Virus record (IMG/VR): IMGVR_UViG_3300031992_000005
Coordinates: 32,001 to 96,000 of that record
Source of the DNA: a virus
Length of the DNA: 64,000 nucleotides
Reading direction: 5' to 3' (one strand)
Part shown: one piece after another, positions 1 to 15,816 of the stretch
Numbering within the stretch: position 1 is the stretch's first letter
Layout of the letters: the number at the start of each line of letters is the position of its first letter
Position numbers and translations under genes: made by a program
The notes under the pieces: model-generated
Told to the model about the DNA's origin: nothing
Seen by the model: the letters and a program-made list of their open reading frames with translations, nothing else
Database searches by the model: none

Positions 1-39
1 AAGATACACCAGTTTCTCTTAATAGCCCGTTCATATAAA

Positions 40-228
40 TTAATCAAGCTTTAATACATCCAAGTATCCGCTATTTTCATTAAGAGTGGCATCTGATGTC
101 TTACCCTCAATAGCTTTTTTATACATTTTTGCAGCAGAACCATCATCATAGATTTCTGTTCTTTGATATGGCTTAGATTTACGATTCTGCCTACTTGGAA
201 GTTTCATAGATTTAACTGATTTAACCAT
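40..228 (-). CDS. hypothetical small basic protein (62 aa)
   Basis: Intact ORF, co-oriented with the upstream ORF and overlapping it by 8 nt in a packed minus-strand operon. No motif recognised. Confidence 0.45.
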   Translation of the reverse strand: MVKSVKSMKLPSRQNRKSKPYQRTEIYDDGSAAKMYKKAIEGKTSDATLNENSGYLDVLKLD

Positions 229-505
229 TGCTCAGCTCAACAAATTCTAAATCTCTTAAAGTAAATGTCCTATTACAAATTTCTTCTAATTCAATAATAG
301 TATGACATTTGCCATCCACTGTTATCCTGAAGCCTATTTTTTTTATTGTAAAAAGCTCATTCTTTTTTCCATGCCAAAGATGATTATTCTGCATAGTCAA
401 GGATACTACTTTTACTTTGGCTCCAATGATATTTTCATAAGCAGCAACTCCGGATTGTTCATCCCTTGAAATAAGTCGCTGATCATCTATACAAAATCCT
501 TTCAT
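221..505 (-). CDS. hypothetical protein (94 aa, start refined)
   Basis: The ORF track starts at 547. The in-frame ATG at 505..503 forms an ATGA overlap with the RNase H stop (504..502), as at many junctions in this window. Confidence 0.5.
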   Translation of the reverse strand: MKGFCIDDQRLISRDEQSGVAAYENIIGAKVKVVSLTMQNNHLWHGKKNELFTIKKIGFRITVDGKCHTIIELEEICNRTFTLRDLEFVELSNG

Positions 506-981
506 TCTTTCTCTCCTTTTGCTAAAGAATCTACATAAGAATTCCAATAAGCATCTCTTTGGAGAACGCTTTTCTTTTGATGTCCCTTAACCCAAGCAAA
601 AGTAATATTTATTTTCTTAGTCTGAATTATTTTATCAATATCATCCTTTATAATCTTGATATAGCGCTCCTTTATTCTCCAAGAACCATTCATCCAATCT
701 CTAACACCCTGATAATCGGCATAAAGAGTAACATGTGCTCCCCCGGGTATATTGAATGATTGAAGAGCAACCAAGACTCCTAGCATTTCTGCTGTTGGAT
801 TACTTACTTCAGAAGTTCCTAGGTATCCTTTTAACCAATCCTGTGCTAATTCTTTGGAGAATTTATCCAAGATTGTACCAAATCCACTTCCAGAGGGATC
901 TACTAGGATACCGCCACAACCAAGTCTTTTACTTGTATGCTTTAAGTGAGATCCATCTGTATATATTTCAAGTTCTTTCAT
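502..981 (-). CDS. rnhA: ribonuclease HI (type 1 RNase H)
   Basis: Collinear RNase H1 catalytic pattern: IYTDGS (Asp), NPTAEMLGVLVAL (Glu), LYADYQ (Asp), WVKGH...NSYVDSLAK (His/Asp). Length of 159 aa is typical. Confidence 0.85.
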   Translation of the reverse strand: MKELEIYTDGSHLKHTSKRLGCGGILVDPSGSGFGTILDKFSKELAQDWLKGYLGTSEVSNPTAEMLGVLVALQSFNIPGGAHVTLYADYQGVRDWMNGSWRIKERYIKIIKDDIDKIIQTKKINITFAWVKGHQKKSVLQRDAYWNSYVDSLAKGEKE

Positions 982-1433
982 ATTGTTATTATTCCTTTCT
1001 CGGATTTAAATTCAAACGGCTCTAGGTTTAGGTTAAAATCTTTTTTACAAAAGTCCCTAAACTCGGTCGTGCCTATGTCACAGAGATCTCCTAAGTTAAG
1101 TAAAAATTCTTCTAGGTTCTTCTGCTTTAAGTTACTGTGAGTCTTTACAAAAAGATATGTAAATTTATCAAGATTATCAATTAAGGTATCGGGATCTTCT
1201 TCTAATATAAAGGCTCCACTATATACATATAATGAATCTATTAGGTCTATCCAGTCCCAAGATATAGAAAGAGAATTTCCTTTACTTAAGTAATATAAAA
1301 TACTTCTTGTTGGCTTTTCTCGTAGGATTATATATTCATTCCTAGATATAACAATATCTTTTAACCTGGTGGGACTTTTACCTTTACTGTAATCAAGAGA
1401 AAGAAAATTCTTTAAAATTTCTCTATTCGTCAT
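978..1433 (-). CDS. hypothetical protein (151 aa)
   Basis: Intact ORF whose stop forms an ATGA overlap with the RNase H start (978-981). No motif recognised. Confidence 0.6.
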   Translation of the reverse strand: MTNREILKNFLSLDYSKGKSPTRLKDIVISRNEYIILREKPTRSILYYLSKGNSLSISWDWIDLIDSLYVYSGAFILEEDPDTLIDNLDKFTYLFVKTHSNLKQKNLEEFLLNLGDLCDIGTTEFRDFCKKDFNLNLEPFEFKSEKGIITI

Positions 1434-1695
1434 CTTTCAAATTACTAATTAAAGTTTCCATTGGCCAACCACTTCTCACTAGAATGGTTTTTGTATCCCA
1501 AAATAATTGAAAACCTGCACTATCACATATATGTACAATACCTAGGCGGTCATATAGCTCTTGTAGGTCTTCTTCATTATAGAAAGTTATTCCAAGAACT
1601 CCTCCAAGCTGATACGTAAAAATCACACTCCTAGGAAATAATTCAGCTTCAACAAGAAGATCTTCAACTTGTTCTTGTATTTTTTCTTCTAACAT
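1423..1695 (-). CDS. hypothetical acidic protein (90 aa)
   Basis: Intact ORF overlapping the downstream gene by 11 nt. No motif recognised. Confidence 0.55.
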   Translation of the reverse strand: MLEEKIQEQVEDLLVEAELFPRSVIFTYQLGGVLGITFYNEEDLQELYDRLGIVHICDSAGFQLFWDTKTILVRSGWPMETLISNLKDDE

Positions 1696-1714
1696 AAATC
1701 ATATGTTTTTTATT

Positions 1715-2926
1715 TTATTCAATTGGATAAATATCCGATGCGTAAGTACTCCAACCTTCGGCTGCTTTATATACATCTAGACTTTCAGATGGGACGTAGA
1801 ATTTACGACCAGAGGCGTTACCTTCGAATACAGTAATACCCAATTCTGGTGGAGTTGTTGCTAGAATTGTTACGCTAGAAAGATTATTATTATTGTAAAA
1901 TGCATTTTTTTTAATGCTAGTAACTGAGCTTGGTATAGTAACTGCAGTCAAACTATTAGCTGCAAATGCACTTTCGTCAATAATTTTAATACTATCGGAA
2001 AAAGTGATATCTGTTAATGAACAAGCAGCAAAAGCCGAATTACCTATTGACTGTACCCCATATAAAAATTCAACATTTTTTAGATTACTGCAACTTACGA
2101 ATGCTTGTTCAGCTATATTAATGATTGAGCCCGGTATTGTAACCGAGGTTAAACTACTGCAAGTACCAAATGCCATATAGTCAATGCTGGTTACTGAGTC
2201 AGGTATCGTAATAGAAGTTAAGGCAGAACATCCTTGAAATGCCTGATTACCAATACTTGTAACTGAATCTGGAATTGTAATGGAAGTTAAAGAAGAGCAA
2301 CCACTAAATGCTCTACTACCTATACCAGTAACTCCGTCACCTAAAGTAATACATGTTACCTTTCTACAGCCTGAAACGAGGTCATTAGGAACATCAATCT
2401 TCGCATTAAATATTAATTTACTAAACACTTCACTATTATAAATTCCCTGAAGAATTGCAGTTCCTATATAAGTGACTGAACTAGGTATCGTTAGTTCAGT
2501 TAATTCAAAACATCCACCAAATGCGCTATCACCTATACTAGTAACTGAATCTGGAATATTTATGGTTACTATTCCACTACCACCAAAAGCACCCTGACCA
2601 ATACTAGTAACTGAATTTGGAATCATTACTTCGATATTTCCACAACCAACAAATGCACTGTTACCAATACTAGTAACGGAGTTCGGAATTATTACTTTTG
2701 TTAAATTATGGAGTCCACTAAACATGCTTGGAGGAACGATAGTACTGTCTACTAAACTATACTTCACTGTATGTTCCCCCAGTGAATCAAAGGTATATGT
2801 CTTAGTAATTTCAGTTAATTCGATCCCATCGACCTCAACGTTAATGAAATCACCTAGGGATACAGAATTGACACTACTAATTATCTGTGTTGCCTCTTCT
2901 GTACTAGTAACATTAAACTTAGCCAC
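1715..2926 (-). CDS. BspA-type leucine-rich-repeat protein (start codon doubtful; see G10 tract)
   Basis: About 12 tandem ~23-aa repeats of the form IP.SVTSIG..AF.GC..L (BspA-like LRR). The track 'M' is a GTG at 2926..2924 and the first in-frame ATG is 67 codons downstream. The frame stays open upstream to 2974. Confidence 0.8.
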   Translation of the reverse strand: MAKFNVTSTEEATQIISSVNSVSLGDFINVEVDGIELTEITKTYTFDSLGEHTVKYSLVDSTIVPPSMFSGLHNLTKVIIPNSVTSIGNSAFVGCGNIEVMIPNSVTSIGQGAFGGSGIVTINIPDSVTSIGDSAFGGCFELTELTIPSSVTYIGTAILQGIYNSEVFSKLIFNAKIDVPNDLVSGCRKVTCITLGDGVTGIGSRAFSGCSSLTSITIPDSVTSIGNQAFQGCSALTSITIPDSVTSIDYMAFGTCSSLTSVTIPGSIINIAEQAFVSCSNLKNVEFLYGVQSIGNSAFAACSLTDITFSDSIKIIDESAFAANSLTAVTIPSSVTSIKKNAFYNNNNLSSVTILATTPPELGITVFEGNASGRKFYVPSESLDVYKAAEGWSTYASDIYPIE

Positions 2927-2937
2927 GATTCGAGTTT

Positions 2938-3093
2938 CTACGGGTTCAGATTCTCCCCCCCCCCTATGAGGTCCTCACTATTGAGAGATGGAAAGTAATC
3001 GCTCTTAACCCTTTTCTTTACATTCGCATAAATATATTCGCTCAATGTATCTCCTCCTAATTCATGGGAGAAACAGTCATTTACGTTGCTCAT
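2938..3093 (-). CDS. 51-codon leader ORF, probably the displaced N-terminus of the LRR protein
   Basis: The ATG at 3093..3091 forms an ATGA overlap with the stop of the upstream gene. The ORF runs through the G10 tract and stops 5 codons later (TAG 2940..2938). One extra G would fuse it in frame to the LRR ORF, giving a 459-aa product. Confidence 0.4.
   Translation of the reverse strand: MSNVNDCFSHELGGDTLSEYIYANVKKRVKSDYFPSLNSEDLIGGGENLNP
2955..2964. repeat. homopolymer tract C10 (+) / G10 on the coding strand
   Basis: Counted directly: ttct-cccccccccc-tatg. It lies between the leader ORF frame and the LRR frame. Confidence 0.95.
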
Positions 3094-3515
3094 ATTATTA
3101 TCTCATTTATCCTATTAGTTAATAAGCCAGAATTATTTAGTATATCAGCTAGGACGTGTCTGTGACAATTTTCATAGCTGCTACCATATCCTAAGAGAAC
3201 AATTGCTTTTGCTCCACAGCATTCCACAAGTTGTTCAAAAGTCCTAATTACTTTTTCCAAATTGACCTGGCTTATTTCAATTGCGTATCTTTTCTCAAAT
3301 TCTTCCTGTGTAATTAGGTTATCTCTCTTTGCCCTGAATAATTCATTACTAGGGGCAAGATCTTTCATATGTATTGGAGTATCTGAATATCCTCCAATTA
3401 ACGTAGAATTCTTTATGTTTCTGATTATAAAAATTGGTAAGAATTCTTTTTCAATATAATCCTTTAGTGTTAATGGTGACACGAAGGATGTATAAATTTT
3501 CAAATCTGTTTTCAT
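3090..3515 (-). CDS. DUF488 (YeaO-like) family protein, tentative
   Basis: Motif string LAPSNELF..K...IT.EEFEKRY..E ... VLLGYG....CHRHVLADIL resembles the DUF488 pattern (LAPS.eL, eF..Y..E, C.E..CHR..la..l). Judged from memory of the family only. Confidence 0.5.
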   Translation of the reverse strand: MKTDLKIYTSFVSPLTLKDYIEKEFLPIFIIRNIKNSTLIGGYSDTPIHMKDLAPSNELFRAKRDNLITQEEFEKRYAIEISQVNLEKVIRTFEQLVECCGAKAIVLLGYGSSYENCHRHVLADILNNSGLLTNRINEIII

Positions 3516-3524
3516 TTACTCGTT

Positions 3525-3950
3525 CTAAAGTTTAGACCCACCAAACTTCCTATACGAGCTTCTAAATCCTGTTGCACTAGCAAATCCTCCTCCAGTTTTC
3601 TGTTTCCCTTTACTAGGGGTGGTGTTAGATTGCTGGTTACTATTGCTGTTATTATTCCCGCTTCCGAACTTTTGGCCGCTAAGCATAAAGCCTGAGGGAG
3701 CGGTATTTAATCTTTTTATTAGTTTCATATTTCCTTCAATAATAGCTCTCATCGTGGCAGAGTCTACGTGATAGGAAATGTCAGGACAATCTAGGAGATC
3801 TACCTTTGACATTCCCGATGTTTGAAGGAAATTATTTAACATAACTAATGCTTCCGTTAGATTAGAAGCTACCATAAGTGAGTCTGTAGTAGGTTCATAG
3901 ACTGCATAGTTGTTCTTTGTTTTATCAAATTTAATAACAACTTCAACCAT
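3525..3950 (-). CDS. hypothetical protein with G/N/S/Q-rich basic tail (141 aa)
   Basis: Intact ORF with a low-complexity C-terminus (GSGNNNSNSNQQSNTTPSKGKQKTGGG). Confidence 0.6.
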   Translation of the reverse strand: MVEVVIKFDKTKNNYAVYEPTTDSLMVASNLTEALVMLNNFLQTSGMSKVDLLDCPDISYHVDSATMRAIIEGNMKLIKRLNTAPSGFMLSGQKFGSGNNNSNSNQQSNTTPSKGKQKTGGGFASATGFRSSYRKFGGSKL

Positions 3951-3954
3951 TTAG

Positions 3955-4356
3955 TTAAATAATTATTGCTAATAAGATGCCCAATACAAATCCTCCTCCT
4001 GCACCTAAGACAGTTTTGAAGAAAGATTTTTTCTTAAGCTTTTCATTTTCTTGATATAATCTCTTAGACTGATCTAAGTAATATTCTTCTTTAATTCTCT
4101 CTCTTTCCTGGATCTCTACGATAATAGAGTCCTTTATTCCAAGCTGTTCATCTTTTATAGTTAAGAGGGAGTCCATTATAACACTTTCTCTCATTCTATA
4201 CTCCCAATCTGCAATAATACCATTAATTGTTTTTAATTCTTGTGGTGTTATTGTAATAAGAGTATCTATGCCGATGACAACTTTTTTCTGTGAATATAAA
4301 GAAGAAGGGATAAAAAGAAAAGCTAAGAGAATAGTAATCATCCTAATAGTTTTCAT
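3955..4356 (-). CDS. secreted/membrane coiled-coil protein (133 aa)
   Basis: N-terminal signal-like hydrophobic stretch (ITILLAFLFIPSSLYSQ), a charged heptad-like middle and a C-terminal TM segment (GAGGGFVLGILLAIII). Confidence 0.6.
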   Translation of the reverse strand: MKTIRMITILLAFLFIPSSLYSQKKVVIGIDTLITITPQELKTINGIIADWEYRMRESVIMDSLLTIKDEQLGIKDSIIVEIQERERIKEEYYLDQSKRLYQENEKLKKKSFFKTVLGAGGGFVLGILLAIII

Positions 4357-4666
4357 ACTCTCTTAGTTTTTTCCCGAGATATTTTACTGCATCATCGGTA
4401 GATAGGTTTTTCACTTGTTCTATTTCTACCCCTCTTTGGCTCTCGAGTATCCAAAGGGCTTCTTTCAATGCATTGTTCATTAATTCTAGGCTATCTCCTC
4501 TCCTACTGAGAGAATCAATTCTATCATTCTCCTTTTGTACCAGGGAGTCAGGTATAATTATATCCCCTGGCATTACTGGTTTAGGTTGGTAGATTCCTTT
4601 ACCAAGGAGGAATCCACCAATCATACCCAATATGAAGGAACTTATAATTTTAAGATACTTCTTCAT
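4343..4666 (-). CDS. N-terminally anchored membrane protein (107 aa)
   Basis: A single N-terminal TM segment (IISSFILGMIGGFLLG) followed by a charged helical region. Overlaps the downstream gene by 14 nt. Confidence 0.6.
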   Translation of the reverse strand: MKKYLKIISSFILGMIGGFLLGKGIYQPKPVMPGDIIIPDSLVQKENDRIDSLSRRGDSLELMNNALKEALWILESQRGVEIEQVKNLSTDDAVKYLGKKLREYENY

Positions 4667-5237
4667 TAGCTTCAGTCACATATATTCCTATTCTATATTC
4701 GATCCCATCTTTCTTGAGGTAATTTACATAGTTATGAAATATTCTATAGTCTTTTTCTCCATCTCTTTGGATCATATGTGAATCCCAGCCATTAGATTCT
4801 GTTAATCTGGTTGCCAGGTATTCCAACTTATGAACCTTAGGACCATACTCAGTGAGAAGTTCTAGGCTAGAATTAGGATTCATTTTATCCTTCATTTCTT
4901 CAAGTTCCTTATAAACTTCTTCCTTAGTCATAATATTAGATGGAAATTCCTCCAACTTATATTGTTTTGGATCCGTCTGATTAGTAACAGTATTAATAAA
5001 TTGATCTCCTACTTTCTTACTGCTAATCTCCGCCAGGACTGCATTATAGTTTTTATTACCATTAATGAAATCCTTTATGTCAGTTAGAGTTTTCAGACTA
5101 GTTGTCATTCCAAGGCTAACAAATACGCCTAGGGGTCTTGTTAAATCTTTTCCATCTTCACTATTAACGTAAAAAGTTTTATACGTGGGCTGGTAAAATA
5201 ACTTTACCAGCTCATGTACCTTATCTCTATTAATCAT
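4650..5237 (-). CDS. hypothetical protein (195 aa)
   Basis: Intact co-oriented ORF. No motif recognised. Confidence 0.6.
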   Translation of the reverse strand: MINRDKVHELVKLFYQPTYKTFYVNSEDGKDLTRPLGVFVSLGMTTSLKTLTDIKDFINGNKNYNAVLAEISSKKVGDQFINTVTNQTDPKQYKLEEFPSNIMTKEEVYKELEEMKDKMNPNSSLELLTEYGPKVHKLEYLATRLTESNGWDSHMIQRDGEKDYRIFHNYVNYLKKDGIEYRIGIYVTEANEEVS

Positions 5238-5249
5238 TTTTCTATAGTT

Positions 5250-7040
5250 TTAATCCGCATATGAGCGATTGAAATTCTTTACAATGAAATTCGGCGCCCA
5301 TGTAAAGTTGTTATTGTAGTTAGACCTTCCATAATTGAAGCCATACACTGTATACTTAGGCATGTTCTTCAATACGTCGTTCCATTCTTCCAGATAATCT
5401 TCAAAGTCACTAACTACGATCAGTATAGAATCGGGTCTGTAGTTTTCCTTGAAGTACTGAATACCACGAGCTAGTCTTGTTCCACCACCAGAATGAATCT
5501 TTTCTACTCTTTCACCAGCTTTGATATTTCTGATATGTTCACCCATCCTAGTATTCCAAGTGATGATATCATATAGAAGACCCCTATTGATTGATCGCAT
5601 CTTTCTTGAAATGGTAGCTAAGATTCTGTCAATCAGAACAGTATCCATAGAGCCTGAGATATCAATAAGATATACAATCTTTGGTTTCGTATTGATACTG
5701 AACTTTGGTGTAATGGATGGAACTATAGCCGATCGAATCTTTCCGAGGTTATAGTTTCTCATAACGCTTCTCTCGAAACTGATCTTAAGAACTCTTGATC
5801 GAGTCTTATTAATCACTTCCTCAATAGCATCGTCAACTGGATCTTGCTTAGTAGTTATTCTTACACCGTCAGATCCACCTGAGCTTCCACAACCTGCTCC
5901 TCCACCGGCAGTAATTTGACCTAGTTCACGTGATTTATCTGCAGCGTCACGTTCTGTAGTTCTATGATCCTTATGAGTTCCTCCAGAAAGTTCCATGAAG
6001 TTCGAATCTCTCTTTCCAATGTACTTACTTAGTGCGTCTTTTCCGTTTTCCTTAAAACCACCAGAATTGCTGGTATCATTACCACTAGCACCTCCATTAG
6101 AACCAGAGTTTTGATCTCCCTGTTGATCCTGACCAGATTGTCCTTGACCATCCTGACCATCTTCGATCATACCAAGCTGTCTCATCATATCAGTCAAGCT
6201 TGTCATGCCATTTCCAAGTGCTTGAGCCAATTCATCATCTGTAACGCTGCTAGTATCTCCATTACCGCCGGAGCTAATACTAACCAACATCTTCACAAAC
6301 TGACTTATGTTCTTGATAATCAGAATCAGGTATTCAGGATAAGTTAAGCCAATTGGGAATGGACTACCATCCGAAAGATGATAGAAACTAGGGTGCATAA
6401 ACTTGATCTTAGCTTCTTTGGCCATCTTATCCAGGAGTTCATCAATCTTTTTCTTAATATGATCTGGAACGTTTTCTTGATCTCTAATTCCCTTTAATAC
6501 CTCTTCCTCCACTTTTGGTAGGGTTGAAGTTACTCCATTCTGCATAGTTTCAATACAGTCTAAGTCAAGAATCACTGAGTTAACTTCAAAATCCATTGCA
6601 ATATTATGGAGGGAGTGATTGAGAACTGGATCATCTATGATTCGATTAATCAGATCTTCCGCAAAATCAATCTTACATTCATTATTAATTCGATCGATTA
6701 ATTCTCCTCTATAGATTTTCAGAACACTTGCTACTTTTCTATCAAGCTCTTCATAAATACCATCAAGATGTGCAAGATAGATGTGACCATACTCATGCAT
6801 CTTAATGAAGTATTCAGTAGTTTGAAGAAGCTTATCATTGCCATCTTTATCCAACTTGGCTACAACCACATTATACAATGTTTTTCCTCCACTTGCATCT
6901 GCAAATTTCCAGGAGTAACCAAGTTCTGGATTATAAGGATCAAACGGCTTATTTAAGTTTTCTATTAACCGATACTGACCCCTATTGTAAGCTCTTTTAA
7001 CCAGGTTTTCAATAGGTCTGAGCTCATTAACAGTTTTCAT
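5250..7040 (-). CDS. vWA-domain protein with N-terminal HExxH metallopeptidase-like domain (DUF2201-like)
   Basis: HEYGH (HExxH) near the N-terminus and a Gly/Gln/Ser-rich linker. The C-terminal vWA MIDAS motif is IVYLIDISGSMD, followed by SGGGT and VVSDFED. It sits next to an AAA+ ATPase, as in MoxR/vWA pairs. Confidence 0.8.
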   Translation of the reverse strand: MKTVNELRPIENLVKRAYNRGQYRLIENLNKPFDPYNPELGYSWKFADASGGKTLYNVVVAKLDKDGNDKLLQTTEYFIKMHEYGHIYLAHLDGIYEELDRKVASVLKIYRGELIDRINNECKIDFAEDLINRIIDDPVLNHSLHNIAMDFEVNSVILDLDCIETMQNGVTSTLPKVEEEVLKGIRDQENVPDHIKKKIDELLDKMAKEAKIKFMHPSFYHLSDGSPFPIGLTYPEYLILIIKNISQFVKMLVSISSGGNGDTSSVTDDELAQALGNGMTSLTDMMRQLGMIEDGQDGQGQSGQDQQGDQNSGSNGGASGNDTSNSGGFKENGKDALSKYIGKRDSNFMELSGGTHKDHRTTERDAADKSRELGQITAGGGAGCGSSGGSDGVRITTKQDPVDDAIEEVINKTRSRVLKISFERSVMRNYNLGKIRSAIVPSITPKFSINTKPKIVYLIDISGSMDTVLIDRILATISRKMRSINRGLLYDIITWNTRMGEHIRNIKAGERVEKIHSGGGTRLARGIQYFKENYRPDSILIVVSDFEDYLEEWNDVLKNMPKYTVYGFNYGRSNYNNNFTWAPNFIVKNFNRSYAD

Positions 7041-7102
7041 AATTTTTCTATGTATTTAAAGAATTAACCCCAAGAGTTAATACCCCTGGGGTTCAAATGT
7101 TT

Positions 7103-8881
7103 TTACATAATGTCAGGGAATGTTGCTACCAAGTCTGGGCAACTTCTCTGAAGGCCTTTTTTAGTCATCTTAAGATGAGTACTGCACTGTCTACAATCAG
7201 AACGAAGATCGTTCAATGTAGTCTTAACTGTTGCAGGATACTTCTTCGACGGATCTGTAATCAAAGCACCAATCTCAGTAACAAGAGCATTCAAGTTATT
7301 CCAAGCATGGATCTTGCCAATATAGTCCTCTGGATTTGCCTTGATTTCATCAATCAAGTTACCACCGTTAGAACTACTGATCTTATTGGAAATGGACTTC
7401 GTAATCGTGCTCTTGATACTGCTGCAGATCTTTGAAATGATATCTTCGTCGAGTGGACGATCAATCGTATCAATTTCCTTGTCTGCACGAAGCTCCTTAA
7501 TCTTATTGGTGAGAATATTCATATCACCAATCGAGAATACCGTTCTTGTCTCATTCCCGATGAATGAGCGGAAGAATTCCTGATATTCTGGAAGCTTATT
7601 GCTCGTCATCTTTTCGATATCGTTCGAAGTATCACAGATGTTCATAAAGAATCGATCTGTCAGGATATTTCTTACAACCTCCCTAGTCTTAGGATCTCTT
7701 GTCAATCCAAGACCAATAGTACCGTTGATAATATTCTTAAAATTATCAGACATCAAACCTTCCTTTCCGAAGCAAGCATAACATGCTACAGCTGCATCAA
7801 GGAGATAGTTGAGCGTACGATACGTTGTGAGATTGCTAAGTGGCTCATCCACCTCATTTGTATCGGAATAAATATCCTTCATACTTGTGACATTGAAGTC
7901 AAGCAAACCTTCCTTCTGGAGAGCTTTTGCTTCTGTATTCAGGTTATTCTCGATATATTCACCCGCCTTATGAAGGAAATCTTCATCCAATGGCTTTTCT
8001 TGTGCCATAAGAGCACTCATAGATTTCTTGATCTCTTCAAATAGATCAATTCTCTTACCTGCAAGTGATCCCTGATACTTGCACAGATAATGATCAAGAT
8101 CATTAGCCTTTGGCTGGATATTGAATATGATGAAGCGGTTCAACATTGGAGCCAGAACTGTCATTTCATCTGACAGGTTTTCCGCATAATTACCGGCAGC
8201 TACAATTAATGTATCATCTGGCAATAACTCATCATGACATTTTCTATCGAACACTAGGTTTAGGGCTGCACCTTGAGTCTGTGGATTTGCTGTAGTCAAC
8301 TCATCAAGGAAGAGGAGAGTTTTCTTACCCTGCTCTTTGTTCTTGAGAATCTTCTGAAACCAAGATGGTCTGATATGCTTAGCTGAAGCATGATCATCGT
8401 TGGTCAACGCCTGTACGTTCGCAGACCCCTTCTTCGTAAGATCTTCAACCATCTTGTGGAATTCAGCGGTTGCAAATTCATTGAACTTTGCCTTGAACTC
8501 CTCAGGAATATTGTAATCTGAGCAAGAATCATCGATAAACTTCAAAAAACTGCCTTTTAAGGATTTCAATGAATGGGCAAACTGTTCTGTTGTTTTACAA
8601 ACTGCCTTATTGATTTCCTCTCCGCTAGTTTCAGATTTTACAGTGTCATAACCCGTAATAGTGTCTGGAGTTTCATTACTGATTCGAAGCAATACTAGCT
8701 CGTAATCATTAATTTCGGCAAAGAGCTTGACAGCAGTACTTTTTCCTACACCAATATTGCTAATAAGCAGGATGTTAGGAATGTCTATTGATCGGTCCTT
8801 TGCTCTCATCTCCATACATTTACGTGTGATTTGTAACGCGTAAAAGATGTTCGTGTCGATTGAATTGTTAAAATTAACCAT
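7103..8881 (-). CDS. AAA+ ATPase, MoxR/CobS-like, with ~300-aa C-terminal extension
   Basis: Walker A SNIGVGKST, Walker B TLLFLDELT, sensor-1-like IVAAGNYA. Paired with the downstream vWA gene. Confidence 0.8.
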   Translation of the reverse strand: MVNFNNSIDTNIFYALQITRKCMEMRAKDRSIDIPNILLISNIGVGKSTAVKLFAEINDYELVLLRISNETPDTITGYDTVKSETSGEEINKAVCKTTEQFAHSLKSLKGSFLKFIDDSCSDYNIPEEFKAKFNEFATAEFHKMVEDLTKKGSANVQALTNDDHASAKHIRPSWFQKILKNKEQGKKTLLFLDELTTANPQTQGAALNLVFDRKCHDELLPDDTLIVAAGNYAENLSDEMTVLAPMLNRFIIFNIQPKANDLDHYLCKYQGSLAGKRIDLFEEIKKSMSALMAQEKPLDEDFLHKAGEYIENNLNTEAKALQKEGLLDFNVTSMKDIYSDTNEVDEPLSNLTTYRTLNYLLDAAVACYACFGKEGLMSDNFKNIINGTIGLGLTRDPKTREVVRNILTDRFFMNICDTSNDIEKMTSNKLPEYQEFFRSFIGNETRTVFSIGDMNILTNKIKELRADKEIDTIDRPLDEDIISKICSSIKSTITKSISNKISSSNGGNLIDEIKANPEDYIGKIHAWNNLNALVTEIGALITDPSKKYPATVKTTLNDLRSDCRQCSTHLKMTKKGLQRSCPDLVATFPDIM

Positions 8882-8923
8882 TTTTCTTACAACTTGAATT
8901 TTTTAATTTAAAATTAAACATGA

Positions 8924-8952
8924 GTTATCATATATAAGATTTTAACGGGGTT
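8924..8952 (-). promoter_or_regulatory. promoter-like motif (recurrent consensus)
   Basis: The minus strand reads AACCCCGTTAAAATCTTATATATGATAAC, about 45 nt upstream of the ATG at 8881. Near-identical boxes occur at 22511 and 35636. Confidence 0.45.
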
Positions 8953-8968
8953 ATATATGCAAAAATGC

Positions 8969-8993
8969 AAATAAAAAGGGGGAATATCCCCCT
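8969..8993 (-). terminator. intrinsic terminator
   Basis: GGGGG-ATATT-CCCCC hairpin immediately after the stop of the 8997..9890 gene, followed on the minus strand by TTTTTAT. Confidence 0.65.
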
Positions 8994-8996
8994 ATT

Positions 8997-9890
8997 TTAC
9001 TCTAATACGTACTTTCCGTCTCTGAGATTATATACATCGATATAATCCATTCCTGCTTCTCTGGCGGAACAGATATCTCGATTGCTTAATCCCCATCTAC
9101 CAGTACAGATACCTATGAAAATTGTATTTTGTTGTGGAATCTTTAAGTTATCCAATACTTTCATTAGGATATCTGCTCTTGGAGAAGTTTCATCTGTATA
9201 TCTTATGAAAAGTACATTTTCTTTCGGAATACGCAGATAAGAACTAAGACATAATGATACATAATTGAGTAGTACGGTAGAAGATGTACTATCTTCCACT
9301 AGTCTCTTTAAATCCTTGTCGCTGACTAATATACCAAGTGTCGTTAATCCAAAGCTTCCAATTCTACTCCAGATATCAAGCTTGGGAATTAGGTCATAGA
9401 TTCCTCTCGGGAATATTCTTGGTCTTCCTCTACTATCAGATGATTCATATAAGCAGTCCAAAAAATTTGTTACAACAAAGGATTTTATTGGTACTGTACC
9501 TTCTACTTTTACTGTAGTATTATCTGTAGTTGAACTAACATTACTACTACTACTGTAGTAGCCATTAGGAGAGGCGTTCTTCCAATTTTTATAGGAATTT
9601 GTAGATCCTTCCATCTCCCAAGGGCCAGGATCATTAGGATTATTCCCGCCGGGAGATCCTACTCCAAAATTAGGTCCTCTTCCTTTATTACCTTCTACAA
9701 AAATATTATTTGTCATTGACGAATCTTTTTTCGTTTCCTCATATTCCAGACGATCTAGTTCTCGTTCAATAGCGATTTCGTCTTCGTCCATCAACTCCTC
9801 TAGACCATCACTTCCATCTTCCGTTGGATGTAAGCTTTCTGCCATTATCCCTGTATAATCTGGAGGTAAATACTTTAGAGGCTCGCTCAT
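8997..9890 (-). CDS. hypothetical protein (297 aa), acidic N-terminus, G/N/S-rich middle
   Basis: Intact ORF. No confident motif. Confidence 0.6.
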   Translation of the reverse strand: MSEPLKYLPPDYTGIMAESLHPTEDGSDGLEELMDEDEIAIERELDRLEYEETKKDSSMTNNIFVEGNKGRGPNFGVGSPGGNNPNDPGPWEMEGSTNSYKNWKNASPNGYYSSSSNVSSTTDNTTVKVEGTVPIKSFVVTNFLDCLYESSDSRGRPRIFPRGIYDLIPKLDIWSRIGSFGLTTLGILVSDKDLKRLVEDSTSSTVLLNYVSLCLSSYLRIPKENVLFIRYTDETSPRADILMKVLDNLKIPQQNTIFIGICTGRWGLSNRDICSAREAGMDYIDVYNLRDGKYVLE

Positions 9891-9892
9891 TC

Positions 9893-10474
9893 TTAGTTAG
9901 AATTAGATTCGACTTTAAGCTGCTCTTCACTACTTGGTGAATCTGCCATTGGATTTTTATCCTTCTTGATCAGCTTATTAGCCAGTTCAATATCATAGTC
10001 TTCATTTTCAAAGACTTGAGCTAACCAGCAGAATTCATTAGTGGATTTACACTCCGATTTATCTTCCCTATAAGATGCGCATGTACCCGGACATAATTTA
10101 TCAATTATCTCAGGGATACTAACGAGCATTTTCTCTTTAATGGCCTTCTGATAAAGGTCTGGAATAATATCGGGGTAAGCCTTTTCAATGGACATTGGTG
10201 CAGGTACAAAGTGATTTAATTCCACATCCCTTTCCGATACGTTGTCCACATTTCCCAGATCGCTACATAAATCCATATAACTTCTTTCTGGGTCGCTTGG
10301 ATCTCTTGGATCTGGGTAAGTCCTGCACTTCTTTTCTCCGTAAGGGCAAACGGCTGTACAAGCTGCACATTTCATTTCGTTTAGCTTGTCAGTATCAACT
10401 CCAATAAATTCTTGATAACGATCTCCAAACGGAGTACTAACCTTAACCATTCTAGGTTTCATCAACTTCGACAT
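9893..10474 (-). CDS. Cys-rich hypothetical protein (193 aa)
   Basis: Intact ORF with clustered cysteines (CAACTAVCPYGEKKC ... CPGTC ... C..C). Confidence 0.6.
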   Translation of the reverse strand: MSKLMKPRMVKVSTPFGDRYQEFIGVDTDKLNEMKCAACTAVCPYGEKKCRTYPDPRDPSDPERSYMDLCSDLGNVDNVSERDVELNHFVPAPMSIEKAYPDIIPDLYQKAIKEKMLVSIPEIIDKLCPGTCASYREDKSECKSTNEFCWLAQVFENEDYDIELANKLIKKDKNPMADSPSSEEQLKVESNSN

Positions 10475-10514
10475 ATATTTTAAATTTTAAAAGTACATTT
10501 ATAAGGATTTCGGC

Positions 10515-12047
10515 TTATTGAATATTTACTTCTCTAAGCTTCCACTTAACTGTAGCCATGTAAGAGGAATCTCCGAGGATAGGGACTTTACATTCGATAT
10601 CTTCAATGTAAGGCGAATGGTGATCCTTCTTGAAATTCACTGTTTTGGAGATGATCATTCTGAGAGTTAGGTACTTCAGAGAATCACTGCATGCGCGAAG
10701 CTTCTTTGACCAAAATTCCAAATCCTTACCTTGTTCATTAACCTTATCAAGAATCCACTTGAGTTGACTTGACTTATTCTTTGACAAGAAATTGCCTACT
10801 TCCCCAGTCTTGATATAACTTACTATGGCCTCCTGGATTTTTGCTGTATCCGAAGGAACGTTGTTAATATAAGTTATCAATGCCGTGGAGAATTTCTTTG
10901 GTAATTCTGCATCAACTGAAACTGCGTTTGATGGATAGAACTTCTTGCCATAGATACCAAGGCTTTCTAGGAACTGTATCTGAGGATCAATCTTCTTTTC
11001 GCCTTTATTCATATCCTCAATAGTCTCGTAGTATTGTACAGCAATCTTAGAGACATATTCGCTTACCTTAGCCATAGCTAACTGATTAGCATAAAGCTTT
11101 CCAATCTTAGTCTTTTCTATGATAGGAAGCTTTGTCAGATCAACTGTATCTCCTACAAGAACCTTCATACTATGAAGTTTTTTCTTGAGAGAAGGATCAC
11201 TGAGTCTTACTTTCAGCTTATTGATGTTCAATACACCATCGCTGACAACGTTGATTGTTCTGATACAAGTCAAACCCTTTCCAGCTTCTTTACTGATGCC
11301 AAGGTTGTTGTCTGGAACATCAACGTCGACAAATGTTCTGTAGGAAAGCGAGAGATTAGCCCTTTGCTTATTGCCCATGACACTTATTACAGTTTTCCAA
11401 GGACAATTGTCAAACTTTACATTATCTGGAAGTTTAACTTTGCTATCCGTAACACGCACAAATCCTTCAATAGAAACTTCTGCATGATCCTTTGCCAGGT
11501 CTTGGAGAAGTGAGAATACACTATACTTACTATTACAACTTCCGTAAGTCACTGGGTACTTTACTTTCTCAGCCAAGATGTTCAGTTTAAGATTCTCTTG
11601 ATTATTTTGAATATAGAGAGCCAACCCTTCCTTTAGCAACTGGAATTGTTTTTCTCCATACGCTCTATTGAAAGATGTAATAAGGTCATCGTCTTTCGTA
11701 GACAAGAACAGTGATTCCATCAAGCTCAAGTACTTAATAGGTAATCCTATGATTGTTCGCAGAATAACCAATAATTCTGCATTGTTGTGGAGATTCTGTC
11801 TTTTAGGTTCTCCTGCTTTTATCTCTGTGATAAGATAAAAAACAGATACATTAGCTAAAGGCAGCATCTCCCCTTTCAGGGGAACAAATCGAATATTATT
11901 ACCCCCTTCGCCAACAGTAATGGCGAATTTGTACATAAGACTACCTCTATTTTCCACTCGATAGAGGCCATTCTCGTTAACTACATGGTAAACTGATAGC
12001 TTAATTTTACTATCTCTTACCTTAAATTCATTCGTTTTTGTTACCAT
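10515..12047 (-). CDS. hypothetical protein (510 aa)
   Basis: Long intact ORF. Its first 8 codons (MVTKTNEF) and its upstream leader are duplicated in front of gltX. Confidence 0.7.
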   Translation of the reverse strand: MVTKTNEFKVRDSKIKLSVYHVVNENGLYRVENRGSLMYKFAITVGEGGNNIRFVPLKGEMLPLANVSVFYLITEIKAGEPKRQNLHNNAELLVILRTIIGLPIKYLSLMESLFLSTKDDDLITSFNRAYGEKQFQLLKEGLALYIQNNQENLKLNILAEKVKYPVTYGSCNSKYSVFSLLQDLAKDHAEVSIEGFVRVTDSKVKLPDNVKFDNCPWKTVISVMGNKQRANLSLSYRTFVDVDVPDNNLGISKEAGKGLTCIRTINVVSDGVLNINKLKVRLSDPSLKKKLHSMKVLVGDTVDLTKLPIIEKTKIGKLYANQLAMAKVSEYVSKIAVQYYETIEDMNKGEKKIDPQIQFLESLGIYGKKFYPSNAVSVDAELPKKFSTALITYINNVPSDTAKIQEAIVSYIKTGEVGNFLSKNKSSQLKWILDKVNEQGKDLEFWSKKLRACSDSLKYLTLRMIISKTVNFKKDHHSPYIEDIECKVPILGDSSYMATVKWKLREVNIQ

Positions 12048-12108
12048 TTTTCTAGTAATTATTATGAATTAAACAATATAACATTCAAATATAAAGAGTT
12101 TAAGGCTT
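12014..12108 (-). repeat. promoter/leader/first-codons module, copy A
   Basis: About 90 nt matching 13691..13779 at roughly 90% identity by eye, with two short indels. It includes the ATG and codons for MVTKTNEF. Confidence 0.85.
12082..12108 (-). promoter_or_regulatory. promoter-like motif with exact TAnnTTTG box
   Basis: The minus strand reads AAGCCTTAAACTCTTTATATTTGAATG. TATATTTG fits the Bacteroidota -7 consensus TAnnTTTG. Confidence 0.5.
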
Positions 12109-12146
12109 AGATACTGCAGCTCTTTCTATCGTATTTTCATTGCAAC

Positions 12147-13727
12147 TTATCTCAGTTGCGCAATAGCATTTTTCATGCGCTTAATGGTTTCTTCCTTGCC
12201 AAGAAAAGCTGCCAACTCATACATATCAGGTCCCTGTCCTGTTCCCACCAAGCAAACACGCCAAGCGTTCCAAGGCTTGAATCCATGTGCCTCCGTCCAT
12301 GCTTCAATCATTTTCTTCAGACTTTCAACAGAGAAGTCATCAAGTGATTCGAGCACACCAATAAGCTCATCCATCTCCATAGCAGTTGTTTCTTTCCAGT
12401 TCTTGCGGACAAACTTATCTTCCTTGTTGTATATTTCAGGAGTTACAAAGAAGAACTTAGTCAGCGGCCAAAGGTCACTGATGAAGCTTACATTCCTCTT
12501 CTTCTTGTTGCCGTCGTTGTCAACATATTCAATCACTTTCTGTTTCATCATCTCCACGACTTGCGCTTCCTGCTGAGGCGTGGATTCAATGCCATTAGCA
12601 CGAAGAATCTTATTAAATTCAGGAACCCACTCCTCCGCTGGCTTTTTGAGTATATACTGGTGATTGAACCAAATGCTCTTCATGTAGTCAAAATGCGCAC
12701 CACACTTTGAGCACTTACTGAGATCGAACCTCTCAATAAGTTCATCCATCGACATTAATTCCTGGTCGTTACCTGGATTCCAACCAAAGAGAGCCAAGAA
12801 ATTGACTAATGCCTCTGGCAGGTAGCCTTTTTCACGATAGCCTGGACTAACCTCTCCCGACTTAGGGTCGTGCCATTCAAGAGGGAACACAGGAAATCCC
12901 AGTTTATCGCCATCGCGCTTTGAGAGTTTTCCATTACCCATACCCACTGGCTTGAGAATCAATGGTAAATGAGCAAAGCGTGGCATTGTGTTCTGCCAAC
13001 CAAATGCTTCATAGAGCAGCACGTGAAGTGGAGCCGAAGGCAACCATTCCTCACCACGAATAACGTGGGAAATCTTCATTAAGTGGTCATCCACAATGTT
13101 TGCCAAGTGATAAGTAGGCAATTCATCAGCACTCTTGTAGAGTACCTTGTCGTCGAGGATACTGCTGTTAATGCTTACATCGCCACGAATCAAGTCATCC
13201 ACATGCACATCACGTCCTGGCTCAATCTTAAAACGAACCACATACTGTTTGCCGTCAGCAATCAGTGCATCCACTTCTTCCTTACTGAGAGTGAGAGAAT
13301 TACGCATCATCATGCGGGTTTTGGCATCGTATTGGAAGTTCTCTATTTCCTGACGCTTAGCATCAAGTTCCTCGGGTGTGTCGAAAGCAAGATAAGCTTT
13401 GCCATCGTCAAGCAACTGCTGTACATATTTCTTATAGATGTCACGGCGTTCACTTTGGCGATATGGGCCATAGTTGCCACCAAAGGAAACACCTTCATCG
13501 AATTTGATTCCTAACCAATTGAACGACTCAATGATATACTCTTCAGCTCCTGGAACAAAACGATTGGAATCGGTGTCTTCGATACGGAAAATCAAGTCAC
13601 CACCATGTTGTTTTGCGAACAAGTAATTGTAGAGAGCTGTGCGAACCCCACCAATGTGCAGAGGTCCTGTTGGGCTGGGTGCAAAACGCACTCTTACCTT
13701 ATTAAATTCATTTGTTTTTGTTACCAT
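12147..13727 (-). CDS. gltX: glutamyl-tRNA synthetase (class I)
   Basis: [17 protein letters not shown] (HIGH motif), [21 protein letters not shown] and GKLSKRDG (KMSKS motif). Full length at 526 aa. Visibly higher GC than its neighbours. Confidence 0.95.
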
Positions 13728-13779
13728 TTTTATTATTAATTAAACAATATAACATTCAAGTATAAAGAGTTTAAAGCTT
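13691..13779 (-). repeat. promoter/leader/first-codons module, copy B
   Basis: Matches 12014..12108. It supplies the ATG and MVTKTNEF in front of the native GluRS N-terminus ([12 protein letters not shown]). Confidence 0.85.
13753..13779 (-). promoter_or_regulatory. promoter-like motif
   Basis: The minus strand reads AAGCTTTAAACTCTTTATACTTGAATG, the duplicate of the 12082 box. Confidence 0.45.
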
Positions 13780-13832
13780 CAGGACCTCAAGCCCTTACAG
13801 GTGTATATAATTAATATTAAAAAGATTAGACT

Positions 13833-14423
13833 ATGAAATGGGAATGGTATGAAGTAACAACTGAAGTCTTAAAAGAAGCTTTGGAGTTTTATAGCAAGCC
13901 TGAAGAAGACTGGATCAAAGATGTAGTTATTGAAGTCCAAAATCCAGCTAGCTTAATAAATTCAAGAGTATATCTTACTGCAGTGCCACCAGATAAGATG
14001 GATAAAAAATTGGCAGAAGTAGCAAAAATGATTTCAGTTATTGTTGTTAACCCAGGAGAAAAGTTTGCCAGAGTTACATTAACGCCAATGAATCAATTTT
14101 TTGGTAGTAGTTGCTTAGAGAAACTTTTCGGAAATGTGTATAAGCCACATGAACGTAGCTATCTAAATTTTCTCAAACAGAAAAAGATAGAAGGTGAATC
14201 TTTTGAGAAATATCTCAATAGGATGTGGTATATATTCTGTAACGATGAACGAGTACGGGTCGGAATCGGAGAAGAGGATATTTATAACCCTAATGAGAAA
14301 TTCGTTAGAATTAGGCCTATATACTACGACACTTGGTTAGACTTGATGAAATTATATACAGAAACAGGAAACATTAAATACCTTATACCTGAACAAGATA
14401 TTAAAATTTTTAAAGTTAAATGA
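13833..14423 (+). CDS. hypothetical protein (196 aa)
   Basis: Intact ORF, first gene of a short plus-strand block. No motif recognised. Confidence 0.6.
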   Translation: MKWEWYEVTTEVLKEALEFYSKPEEDWIKDVVIEVQNPASLINSRVYLTAVPPDKMDKKLAEVAKMISVIVVNPGEKFARVTLTPMNQFFGSSCLEKLFGNVYKPHERSYLNFLKQKKIEGESFEKYLNRMWYIFCNDERVRVGIGEEDIYNPNEKFVRIRPIYYDTWLDLMKLYTETGNIKYLIPEQDIKIFKVK

Positions 14424-14887
14424 GTAAACATTTCAGAGGTATATTTTTAAATGTATACTTACTAGAAGCAGATATAGTCCGATATTTAGAGGGTAAAGGC
14501 TATAAAATTATTACATTAAATACCGCGATAAAGACTTTTTGCAACTTAAAGGATACCATTGATGTAAGACCTTTCTTAAGTTCTTCTACTAGGTATATGA
14601 AACTCTGTTATAAAACAGAAGAGGATTATCTTCACTTAAGAGATATGGTAGAACTACTCTTTAGTGGAGTAATAGGAGAGGTTAAAACGTGGTTAGATAT
14701 TAAAGAACCTAAACCAAATTTAACTATTAATATCAACTATATCAGTACTGGATTTCTATTTACTGAAGAAAATGGCAGTTTCTATGACCACGTTGCCCTT
14801 AAGGTAGGTAAAAAGTTATTGAAAGAAAATTTAAAAAAGATATTAACATATGAAAAAGGCGAAAACGGCAATAATATTTTTTCATAG
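14420..14887 (+). CDS. hypothetical protein (155 aa)
   Basis: ATGA overlap with the upstream stop. No motif recognised. Confidence 0.55.
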   Translation: MSKHFRGIFLNVYLLEADIVRYLEGKGYKIITLNTAIKTFCNLKDTIDVRPFLSSSTRYMKLCYKTEEDYLHLRDMVELLFSGVIGEVKTWLDIKEPKPNLTININYISTGFLFTEENGSFYDHVALKVGKKLLKENLKKILTYEKGENGNNIFS

Positions 14888-15782
14888 ATCAGACTACGAT
14901 GGCCTATTTTCAGGCTTTATCGCAAAGTCTAAGTTACAAGAAGACGGATACCTAGTTACATCAATAGGCTGGACTTATGGAATGCCTATTCCAAAAGAAT
15001 TAAAACAACGGACATGGGATGTTGTAGTAGTAGTTGACTTGAGTTTTCCACCAGAAATAATGGATAGTATTGAAAACCTGGTTTGGATAGATCACCATGA
15101 TACTTCCATTAAAGATAGTAAACCTTTCAAATACTTCTTCTCTCCCGGAAAAAGAGTATTAGGTAAAGGTGCTTGTGAATTAGCTTGGGAATATTTCTAC
15201 CCAGAGATTGAAGTGCCATTATCTATACAATATCTGAGTGCATATGATGTACATGATATGAAAAGATTTGACTGGCAAGAAAAATCTCTACCACTACAGT
15301 ATGCATTGAAGGCGATGTACGGTAACTCTAAGGATCCGTTGTTTGAAGAATTTGTAAATCTAACCAACCCAGGTAATCTTAATAGGGTGGATGAGTTAAT
15401 AGAAACCGGAAAAATAGTTTTGCAATATGCAAGACGAATGGCTGAGATAGCTGTAAAGAATTACGGTTTCGTAGTAACTGTAAATGAAAAATATAGCGGA
15501 TTATGTATAATCACTACTGATTTCAAGGCGTCTTTGTATACTGAGCTAATGATTGATAAATATGATATCTTAGTTCTAGTTAACAGAAAAAGATCCTCAC
15601 CAGAAGATATATTTATAGTGGGCTTTTATTCTGAGGAAGGAAAACTTGACTTCTCTTTAGGTGATTATGCAAAAGAAATTGTTAAAGGAACTGGAAGAAA
15701 CGGAGGTGGTCATAAGTGTGCCTCTGGTTGTGAAATAGATAAGGAACAGTTCCTAAAACTAATTAGTAGTAAAAAAATATAA
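14850..15782 (+). CDS. DHH/DHHA1-family phosphoesterase (NrnA/RecJ-like core)
   Basis: Collinear DHH motifs: FFHRSDYDG (I), VVVVDLS (II), WIDHHDT (III), and DHHA1 GGGHKCASG near the C-terminus. Confidence 0.8.
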   Translation: MKKAKTAIIFFHRSDYDGLFSGFIAKSKLQEDGYLVTSIGWTYGMPIPKELKQRTWDVVVVVDLSFPPEIMDSIENLVWIDHHDTSIKDSKPFKYFFSPGKRVLGKGACELAWEYFYPEIEVPLSIQYLSAYDVHDMKRFDWQEKSLPLQYALKAMYGNSKDPLFEEFVNLTNPGNLNRVDELIETGKIVLQYARRMAEIAVKNYGFVVTVNEKYSGLCIITTDFKASLYTELMIDKYDILVLVNRKRSSPEDIFIVGFYSEEGKLDFSLGDYAKEIVKGTGRNGGGHKCASGCEIDKEQFLKLISSKKI

Positions 15783-15789
15783 AAAAATT

Positions 15790-15816
15790 CAGTGGGATTC
15801 GTCCCACTGTTTTTAT
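15790..15816. terminator. bidirectional intrinsic terminator between convergent genes
   Basis: CAGTGGGA-TTCG-TCCCACTG hairpin flanked by an A-run upstream and TTTTTATTTT downstream. Confidence 0.7.

Follow-up and report, generated by a model that had tools for sequence, protein, structure and literature searches.

A putative phase-variable G tract at the junction of a conserved leader and a leucine-rich repeat body in an uncultivated huge phage

The 64,000-nucleotide stretch analysed here (positions 32,001 to 96,000 of IMG/VR record IMGVR_UViG_3300031992_000005, hereafter the window) carries on its minus strand a short leader open reading frame (ORF) and a BspA-like leucine-rich repeat (LRR) ORF, separated by a run of ten G. 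Comparison with related contigs suggests that the run, which lies in the linker of an accessory gene, is probably a homopolymeric contingency locus. The gene would then be phase-variable, with the window copy in the OFF phase. An original prediction, made from the letters of the window, had proposed a slippage-prone contingency tract on this LRR gene, and the proposal is now supported by natural ON and OFF alleles and by near-identical genomes that differ in the tract. The locus is laid out as follows.

3515..3090, minus strand: upstream DUF488 gene, 141 aa (PF22751 DUF488-N3a, 1.2e-11; PF04343, 2.4e-10).
3093..2965, minus strand: leader, a conserved 43-codon N-terminal module MSNVNDCFSHELGGDTLSEYIYANVKKRVKSDYFPSLNSEDLI that starts MSNV and ends SEDLI.
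2964..2955, minus strand: G10 tract, the putative switch, exactly ten G (C10 on the plus strand).
2954..2938, minus strand: out-of-frame tail ENLNP of the OFF product and its stop codon TAG (2940..2938), from translation.
2953..2716, minus strand: ESEP linker and then a beta-strand domain (VETRIVAKFNVTS...TYTFDSLGEHTVKY) before the repeats, placed from homologs and from the model of one homolog, P0001.
2926..2924, minus strand: GTG taken as the start of the LRR ORF by the ORF listing and by gene callers, the earliest candidate start.
2715..1715, minus strand: BspA-type LRR (IPxSVTSIGxxAF units) and C-terminal cap (ATTPPEL...YVP..S...Y..A.GWS), from PF13306 and the positions of the repeat motif.

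The frame relations described in the original prediction hold on the sequence. The leader ATG (3093..3091) shares the ATGA at 3093..3090 with the DUF488 stop codon TGA (3092..3090) on the minus strand, and the leader frame runs 43 codons into the G10 tract at 2964..2955 and stops five codons beyond it: after GGG GGG GGG it reads GAG AAT CTG AAC CCG TAG, giving a 51-aa product that is annotated as a gene in other assemblies. The LRR frame, bounded upstream by a stop codon (TGA 2977..2975), is open from 2974 to TAA 1717..1715, 412 codons from the tract side without a start of its own; it begins ESEPVETRIVAKFNVTS, with BspA-type repeats after. Its earliest start candidate is GTG 2926, and its earliest ATG (2725) is codon 68 counted from that GTG, so that the ORF does lack an ATG for 67 codons. 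In silico, G11 and G8 fuse the two ORFs, as had been claimed, into proteins of 459 and 458 aa that read ...SEDLIGGG(G)ESEPVETRIVAKFNV..., and G9, G10, and G12 all truncate. Any run of n = 2 mod 3 (G8, G11, G14) gives a full-length protein that varies only in the number of linker glycines (3–5); other lengths meet a stop 0–5 codons past the run and leave a leader peptide of 46–51 aa. The window copy, with G10, is OFF and lacks one G. The predicted tryptic junction peptide of the fusion is SDYFPSLNSEDLIGGGGESEPVETR, and the OFF-specific C-terminus is ...SEDLIGGGENLNP.

Chance does not readily produce such a run in this DNA. The G10 tract is the sole G or C run longer than 6 in the 64-kb window (34.5% GC; the runner-up is 6), in which 0.0026 runs of G or C of 10 or more would be expected. 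GGG accounts for 8.7% of the glycine codons of the window, and the chance of three consecutive GGG codons is ~7e-4. A/T homopolymers of 9–10 nt occur at window positions 16321, 18412, 18834, 20767, 22638, and 36077, all of them intergenic and none coding; in read data they could act as built-in controls for noise in homopolymer length. Within the LRR body itself, the coding strand has a run of eight A (A8; T8 on the plus strand; window 1905..1912, ..SIKKNAF..). Only three A/T runs of at least 8, this one included, fall within ORFs of the listing for 1..50856, and it could be a further slippage site of the LRR gene, weaker than the G10 tract.

Homologs show that a single gene comprises the leader and the LRR body, because both a tract-less fusion and a natural G11 fusion exist. 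The N-terminal 148 residues of the hypothetical fusion, used as a query, retrieved 174 homologs at E <= 0.001. Among them P0001 (247 aa, locus L008) spans 99% of the query; its leader, 80% identical over 46–47 aligned residues, is joined in frame through an acidic linker GEADDNEDEEED to the matching beta-strand domain and LRRs, and the L008 DNA that encodes it has no G run. The natural G11 fusion, P0143, is a 439-aa member of the 90% cluster of the window's 51-aa product and reads ...LIGGGGESEPVETRIVAKFNV...; its DNA (L009) has G11 in a window-like sequence context and reads ...SEDLIGGGGESEPVETRIVAKFNV... to ...YASDIYPIE. The leader is likewise fused in frame to an LRR body in P0150, described below.

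If the two ORFs form one gene, the start used by gene callers needs another explanation. GTG 2926 is probably an internal valine codon (..ETRIVAKF..) and not the native start, because the motif EPVETR(I/V)VAKFNVTS is internal in many homologs, where it lies downstream of a different N-terminal module. Three substitutions separate the tract-to-GTG interval of L009 and L016 from that of the window (CCC>CCT, GAA>GAG, ATC>ATT), each synonymous in the fusion frame, and in one lineage (C below) ~96 codons follow the tract before any called start. The homologs also point to N-terminal modules that are interchangeable on the same LRR body. Proteins P0002–P0120, found on contigs of up to 429,873 bp, form a large family of 160–260-aa BspA-type LRR proteins with the EPVETR(V/I)VAKFNVTS junction and an N-terminal module reading MAIYLKKFENHTQYExYI....LPNVS.C..E..VHYNP or MANYINKYTNIEAYNADDGKQYPNVSYL. 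The 403-aa protein predicted from GTG 2926 is filed in a 90% cluster with an unrelated representative, P0122 (51 aa, MEEFLKKPNYADKEDINK...), which looks like a clustering artefact of the collection without biological meaning.

To follow the tract through related genomes, as the original prediction had proposed, contigs were obtained by protein-based look-ups in other assemblies, and tract lengths were read at the DNA level from 22 contigs, window included. The tract keeps a constant position, right after the last codons of the leader (...SEDLI, or ...LIGE in one lineage), and n = 2 mod 3 is in every case the condition for reading on into the long downstream ORF; the DUF488 gene also lies 5' of the leader in lineages A, B, and C. 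The length itself ranges from 7 to 13 G and takes the values G7, G9, G10, G11, G12, and G13, distributed over the lineages as follows.

Lineage A, AGAATCTGAACC after the tract: G10 in five contigs (the window clone), G9 (L016), G11 (L009, ON).
Lineage B, TAATGTAGAAGAGCCTGTAGAAACTCG after the tract: G10 in five contigs, G12 in two, G13 in two.
Lineage C, TAATGTAGAAGAGGAAGAAGAG after the tract: G7 in four contigs.
Lineage D (L007), TGATGTAGAAGAAGAGGAGGTC after the tract: G11, in frame, 94-aa product.
Lineage E (L019), TGATAGTGAAGAGGAAG after the tract: G10, OFF, LRR body downstream.

Lineage B is the most informative for the tempo of change. Its contigs differ at 0–3 of 450 nt upstream and 0–4 of 330 nt downstream, and L017 (G12) and L025 (G10) show zero flank differences. 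Because such near-identical flanks carry G10, G12, or G13, run length changes far more rapidly than point substitutions arise. Cluster members imply further alleles, namely G10 on a Gly30 variant of the leader (P0138) and a 46-aa form (P0142). Natural ON forms are P0143/L009, L007, and P0150, and natural OFF forms are found on 20 contigs.

The length seen in the window recurs in other datasets. Flanks matching the window clone without mismatch (0/555 upstream, 0/400 downstream) enclose G10 in SRR9006730, SRR7634052, SRR10838750, and JGI 3300035054; SRR10838750 and JGI 3300035054 may be one sample, so that G10 is present in at least three other datasets. Other lengths were recovered repeatedly (G7 in four contigs, G12 in two, and G13 in two), and runs are not systematically shortened, because G11, G12, and G13 were assembled elsewhere. 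Judged from these assemblies, random or systematic homopolymer error at G10 is very unlikely. One contig, L005 (ENA ERZ28612945 scaffold, 1553 bp), breaks off directly before the first G of the tract; the assembly may have broken here at a site of mixed length, the sole hint of a within-sample mixture, or because coverage dropped at the homopolymer, and the break proves nothing. Exact-pattern scans of IMG/VR and JGI metagenome contigs for the tract flanks with variable run length gave no match, nor did a megablast search of window 1500..4500 against GenBank phages.

Substitution patterns indicate that, read in the fusion frame, both halves of the gene evolve under purifying selection. For the body, comparison of the G10, G11, and G9 alleles of lineage A gives a ratio of non-synonymous to synonymous substitution rates (dN/dS) of 0.16–0.40 at a dS of 0.5–1.0, and of 0.16–0.28 over the first 75 body codons. 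For the leader, the corresponding ratio of proportions (pN/pS) is 0.00–0.13 against seven other lineages, with synonymous sites near saturation; the window and L017 leaders are separated by 14 synonymous and 0 non-synonymous differences. In every lineage with a contig reaching its end, save L014/L015, the body frame stays open for 312–412 codons in AT-rich DNA, and the reconstructed fusions are complete (459 aa in lineage A, 426 aa in B, 358 aa in C), with related C-terminal caps. Between the window leader and those of lineages D (L007) and E (L019), 16–20 of 24 synonymous sites differ, and the G run is uninterrupted in both. The homopolymer is therefore conserved at the nucleotide level and not for the glycines that it encodes, because a pure run has been kept despite synonymous divergence of the leader, GGG is rare, and the tract-less relative uses an acidic linker.

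The predicted fold is an LRR solenoid. Three stretches of the body match PF13306 (LRR_5), with a score of 246.5 bits where the cut-off is 27.7. An AlphaFold2 model of P0001 has a predicted local distance difference test score (pLDDT) above 90 over the beta domain and the LRR body, with the residues of the beta domain modelled as strands; residues 1–45, with one helix at 16–28, score below 50 and are uninformative on the leader. Foldseek with this model returned a gut Bacteroides LRR 'putative cell surface protein' (4fd0, E 8e-5), PcpA, TpLRR, and phage LRR proteins. The protein probably functions in ligand or surface binding. The original prediction had spoken of a surface-type LRR protein. 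The BspA-type LRR fold stands, whereas the surface or receptor-binding label is only putative: the N-terminus (MSNVNDCFSHELGGDTLSEY...) has no hydrophobic signal-like segment, as judged by eye on the sequence and without a predictor, and when the fused protein was compared by tblastn with 50,697 phage records, all 43 matches fell below 60% identity, with no Campylobacter phage among the matches listed.

A profile search with the leader against 1.84 billion representative proteins returned 8 matches, of which six are short ORFs of 29–58 aa and the other two are P0025, the 94-aa in-frame G11 product, and the fused P0001; because these are the only matches, the leader module is confined to this phage group. 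Past the tract, the sequence is unrelated between lineages, and DUF488 is ~95–98% identical. LRR cassettes have evidently been exchanged behind a constant leader. Contigs L014 and L015 are identical to L017 and L018 for 333 nt past the tract and then unrelated, with a different LRR-type sequence downstream; since this and further mosaic breakpoints lie inside the body, cassette shuffling occurs within the body as well. In a separate arrangement, L020:1–637 holds the 3' end of DUF488, a 51-aa ORF (its N-terminus, MSNVNDCFSHELGGDTLTEYYF.., resembles the leader, and its tail is Gly-rich but of another kind and has no G run), and a second DUF488 copy, which looks like a tandem duplication or a chimera.

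The cluster of the lineage E leader contains a second fusion, P0150 (391 aa), a complete leader–LRR protein reading LIGEGGGGDSEE. It is recorded on six contigs, one of them of 353,905 bp, a size equal to that of the longest contig with the window's proteins, and L019:284–703 is a G10 OFF allele of the P0150 type. Because the leader motif occurs only once in the window, P0150 would be a paralog encoded elsewhere in the genome. One genome thus very probably holds two tract-bearing genes, the window copy OFF and P0150 ON, and the comparison suggests several independently switching genes per genome.

A single gene, 3093..1715, thus encodes in order the 43-aa module, a flexible Gly/acidic linker, the beta-strand domain, the BspA-type LRR, and the C-terminal cap, and selection keeps the linker-coding G run as a pure homopolymer. 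We hypothesize that, as in established homopolymeric contingency loci, slipped-strand mispairing at DNA replication changes the length of the run; we infer the slippage mechanism, its rate, and its reversibility within the population. The result would be a heritable, stochastic, and presumably reversible switch on a binding-type protein, and virions or strains would carry differing ON/OFF combinations of the two tract-bearing genes. Because the tract sits in a linker predicted to be disordered (pLDDT < 50 in the P0001 model), in-frame length variants should be tolerated, and with the tract near the 5' end translation in the OFF phase would be cheap.

Several observations weigh against this explanation. 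First, the window's own clone is invariant, with G10 in every dataset found. Its G8, G11, and G13 forms and its G9 and G12 leader products had no match in an exact look-up in the protein collection, and there is no assembled ON allele of this clone, since its G8 and G11 forms are not in that collection; the exact ON forms of lineages B and C were also not found there by exact look-up. Second, ON is the minority state, seen in 2 of the 22 DNA-verified contigs, and in 17 of the 22 n equals 1 mod 3. For P0150, G11 is read from the protein and not from DNA, LIGEGGGGDSEE being the encoding expected of GAA + G11 + T. Third, the body of the G13 contigs L014/L015 stops after 114 codons, at the mosaic breakpoint. 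Finally, all lengths are assembly consensus only, with no within-sample mixture directly seen, and some ENA, Logan, and JGI records may re-assemble the same runs, so that independent samples are fewer than contigs.

A more elaborate version, which we regard as doubtful, is a two-layer device that would combine length drift at the DNA level with slippage expression from the 'one G short' state, or with a choice between leader-fused and leaderless products. The run would be held by preference at G7, G10, or G13 (17 of 22 contigs, three lineages), and slippage of RNA polymerase or of the ribosome would give a small tunable full-length fraction plus free leader peptide. Alternatively, the phase would set whether the LRR body is made with a docking leader (anchored) or without it (free, by re-initiation at the conserved GTG). 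If either holds, at least two such genes per genome would give combinatorial heterogeneity in accessory binding proteins, and the exchange of LRR cassettes would take place at a junction that the G run marks.

Somewhat harder to credit is programmed recoding, in which a genome that is one G short would yield a set ratio of products through RNA polymerase stutter (+1 G) or a -1 ribosomal slip. Transcription is known to slip on long homopolymers, and the fusion frame is exactly what a -1 slip or a single G added to the mRNA would produce. A single length is stable within a clone across datasets, and the excess of n = 1 mod 3 (17 of 22 contigs and 5 of 9 distinct alleles, with G10 modal in three lineages) speaks for recoding and so against a purely DNA-level switch. 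Counted per allele, however, that excess is not significant (~P = 0.15, binomial estimate); the n = 0 mod 3 alleles (G9, G12) would need the opposite shift, and in-frame G11 alleles exist. Folding of 126 nt (2850..2975; the tract and ~105 nt downstream) gave no stable RNA structure (z = -0.03), there was no Rfam match at E <= 1, and a conserved stimulator is impossible where post-tract sequence is unrelated between lineages. Recoding may nevertheless add leaky expression on top of the DNA-level switching that we favour.

A decaying gene, in which the tract is a mutational hot spot and its variation functionless, is improbable. Such decay would fit an out-of-frame majority among the assembled alleles of the locus, which also tells against phase variation, as well as the dispensability of the gene, which is not found in the distant relatives L026 and L027, and the loss of most of the body past the mosaic breakpoint in L014 and L015. 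It is hard to reconcile with stop-free body ORFs of 312–412 codons in the AT-rich DNA of most lineages, with dN/dS of 0.16–0.40 at dS 0.5–1.0 between alleles in different phases, with an almost invariant leader protein, and with a run that stays uninterrupted across deep divergence.

Still less probable are two separate genes, a 51-aa peptide coupled to DUF488 and a leaderless LRR protein started at GTG 2926, perhaps by re-initiation, with an incidental G run between them. Gene callers annotate the locus in this way in all G10 assemblies, and the GTG, 11 nt past the leader stop, is conserved in lineages A and B; a leaderless OFF-phase product would make the switch one between leader-fused and leaderless forms instead of on and off. 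Against this stand the natural fusions P0001, P0143, and P0150, the changes before the GTG, which are all synonymous in the fusion frame, the internal position of EPVETRIVAKF in paralogs, and lineage C, which has no start nearby. The least probable account, that of an ordinary gene with a true G11 misread as G10, had been named in the original prediction as the dull alternative; 10-nt homopolymers are error-prone and contig L005 breaks at the tract, but different assembly pipelines recovered G10 with identical flanks from at least three other datasets, and runs of G11, G12, and G13 were assembled elsewhere.

Genomic context is consistent with an accessory role. In the distant relatives L026:3001–3719 and L027:3001–3695 (IMG/VR contigs of 34,753 and 304,892 bp), DUF488 is followed directly by a homolog of the window's 90-aa gene (1695..1423), and the leader–LRR gene is not in the slot compared (window 1423..3515). 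Because DUF488 directly adjoins that homolog, the leader–LRR gene is an accessory insertion in a variable slot. Three genes occupy this position in L021, coding for a 369-aa LRR protein, a 357-aa protein without assigned family, and a 206-aa protein with a weak GT_PLOD match. Neighbouring genes encode VWA/CoxE-like, AAA ATPase, RNase H, nucleotidyltransferase, amidoligase, and topoisomerase II proteins; none are tail genes.

The source is an uncultivated huge phage with a contig of at least 354 kb, the longest contig with the window's proteins being 353,905 bp. The sole clue to its relatives is a 526-aa protein (window 12147..13727, minus strand; phrog_35649, E 2e-106), which is 39–49% identical to proteins of the uncultured huge phages LR756501–LR756504 and LR745206 (634–735 kb) and 62–68% identical to proteins of short human-faecal phage contigs. 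The sample labels STEW18/19, SHIW14, TONG22, and PRJEB21624 presumably denote rumen metagenomes. Stop-codon reassignment was considered since the nearest GenBank relatives are huge phages of 634–735 kb, and was rejected for the window, where TAA, TGA, and TAG serve as stops 34, 22, and 12 times and ORFs cover 75% under code 11. A tRNA scan of the window found none.

Phase variation is a classic form of bacterial bet-hedging, and the locus described here would extend it to an uncultivated huge phage from the microbial community of a gut or rumen. In bacterial contingency loci, G/C tracts lie near the 5' end of surface, lipooligosaccharide (LOS), and restriction-modification genes, as in Campylobacter, Neisseria, and Haemophilus. 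The present tract is also near the 5' end, so that the OFF product is very short, its length is also polymorphic among near-identical genomes, and the ORF is intact in both phases. It differs in being virus-borne, with replication presumably by the phage's own machinery. Entry points to the bacterial literature are PMC4235727 and PMC10877375.

Two further classes of system resemble the locus in part. Conserved N-terminal parts with variable C-terminal binding parts, and population heterogeneity in a ligand-binding protein, are shared with phage tropism diversifiers such as diversity-generating retroelements (Bordetella BPP-1 Mtd) and invertible tail-fibre segments (Mu Gin/G segment) (PMC12823448). 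Unlike these, the locus has neither a reverse transcriptase and template repeat nor an invertase and inverted repeats, and would combine an on/off frameshift with cassette replacement by recombination. Programmed -1 frameshifting, as in the G/GT pair of phage tail assembly chaperones and in dnaX, and transcriptional slippage sites form a known class in which, as here, a slippery homopolymer links a short ORF to a longer frame and one extra nucleotide restores the fusion. Here, however, the frame relation is not fixed, all three phases being found, and there is no downstream structure or conservation.

Among phages, most of the documentation of phase-variable genes so far concerns the polyG tracts of Campylobacter Fletchervirus, to which a recent preprint has added T-even phages. 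Reversible homopolymer frameshifts in T2, T4, and other phages have been proposed as bet-hedging (Gomez, Barrick & Waters 2025, bioRxiv, PMC12633550); that study screened runs of at least 6 nt, called them common in accessory genes, and measured switching experimentally, whereas the evidence here is comparative only and concerns a 10-nt G run that stands out strongly from the rest of its genome and has been conserved between lineages. A search of the literature on BspA-like proteins of huge or rumen phages and on homopolymer phase variation in metagenomic phages found nothing specific. The closest parallel is with the receptor-binding protein genes of Campylobacter Fletchervirus, which carry hypermutable polyG tracts of 7–11 G (Sorensen et al. 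2021, Cell Rep 35:109214, as summarised in PMC12633550). Both cases involve a similar G run in a phage coding gene (7–13 G here), expressing and non-expressing frameshift variants, apparently more than one tract-bearing gene per genome (P0150 here), and an AT-rich genome in which such runs are unexpected by chance. The present locus is nevertheless an analogue and not a homolog: the protein is a BspA-type LRR protein with only a putative role in receptor binding, the phage is an uncultivated huge phage known from assemblies alone, apparently of rumen metagenomes, and the tract lies exactly at a module junction, where it doubles as a poly-Gly linker.

What is distinctive is the combination of a huge phage, a tract at the junction of a constant leader and LRR cassettes, a run that also acts as poly-Gly linker, and an allele series drawn from public assemblies. 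'Frameshifted' or 'start-less' genes beside long G/C runs in phage metagenomes should not be dismissed as errors or pseudogenes, and identical flanks with different run lengths offer a test that can be scaled. The conserved 43-aa module and its exchangeable LRR cassettes are a candidate host-interaction system of huge phages.

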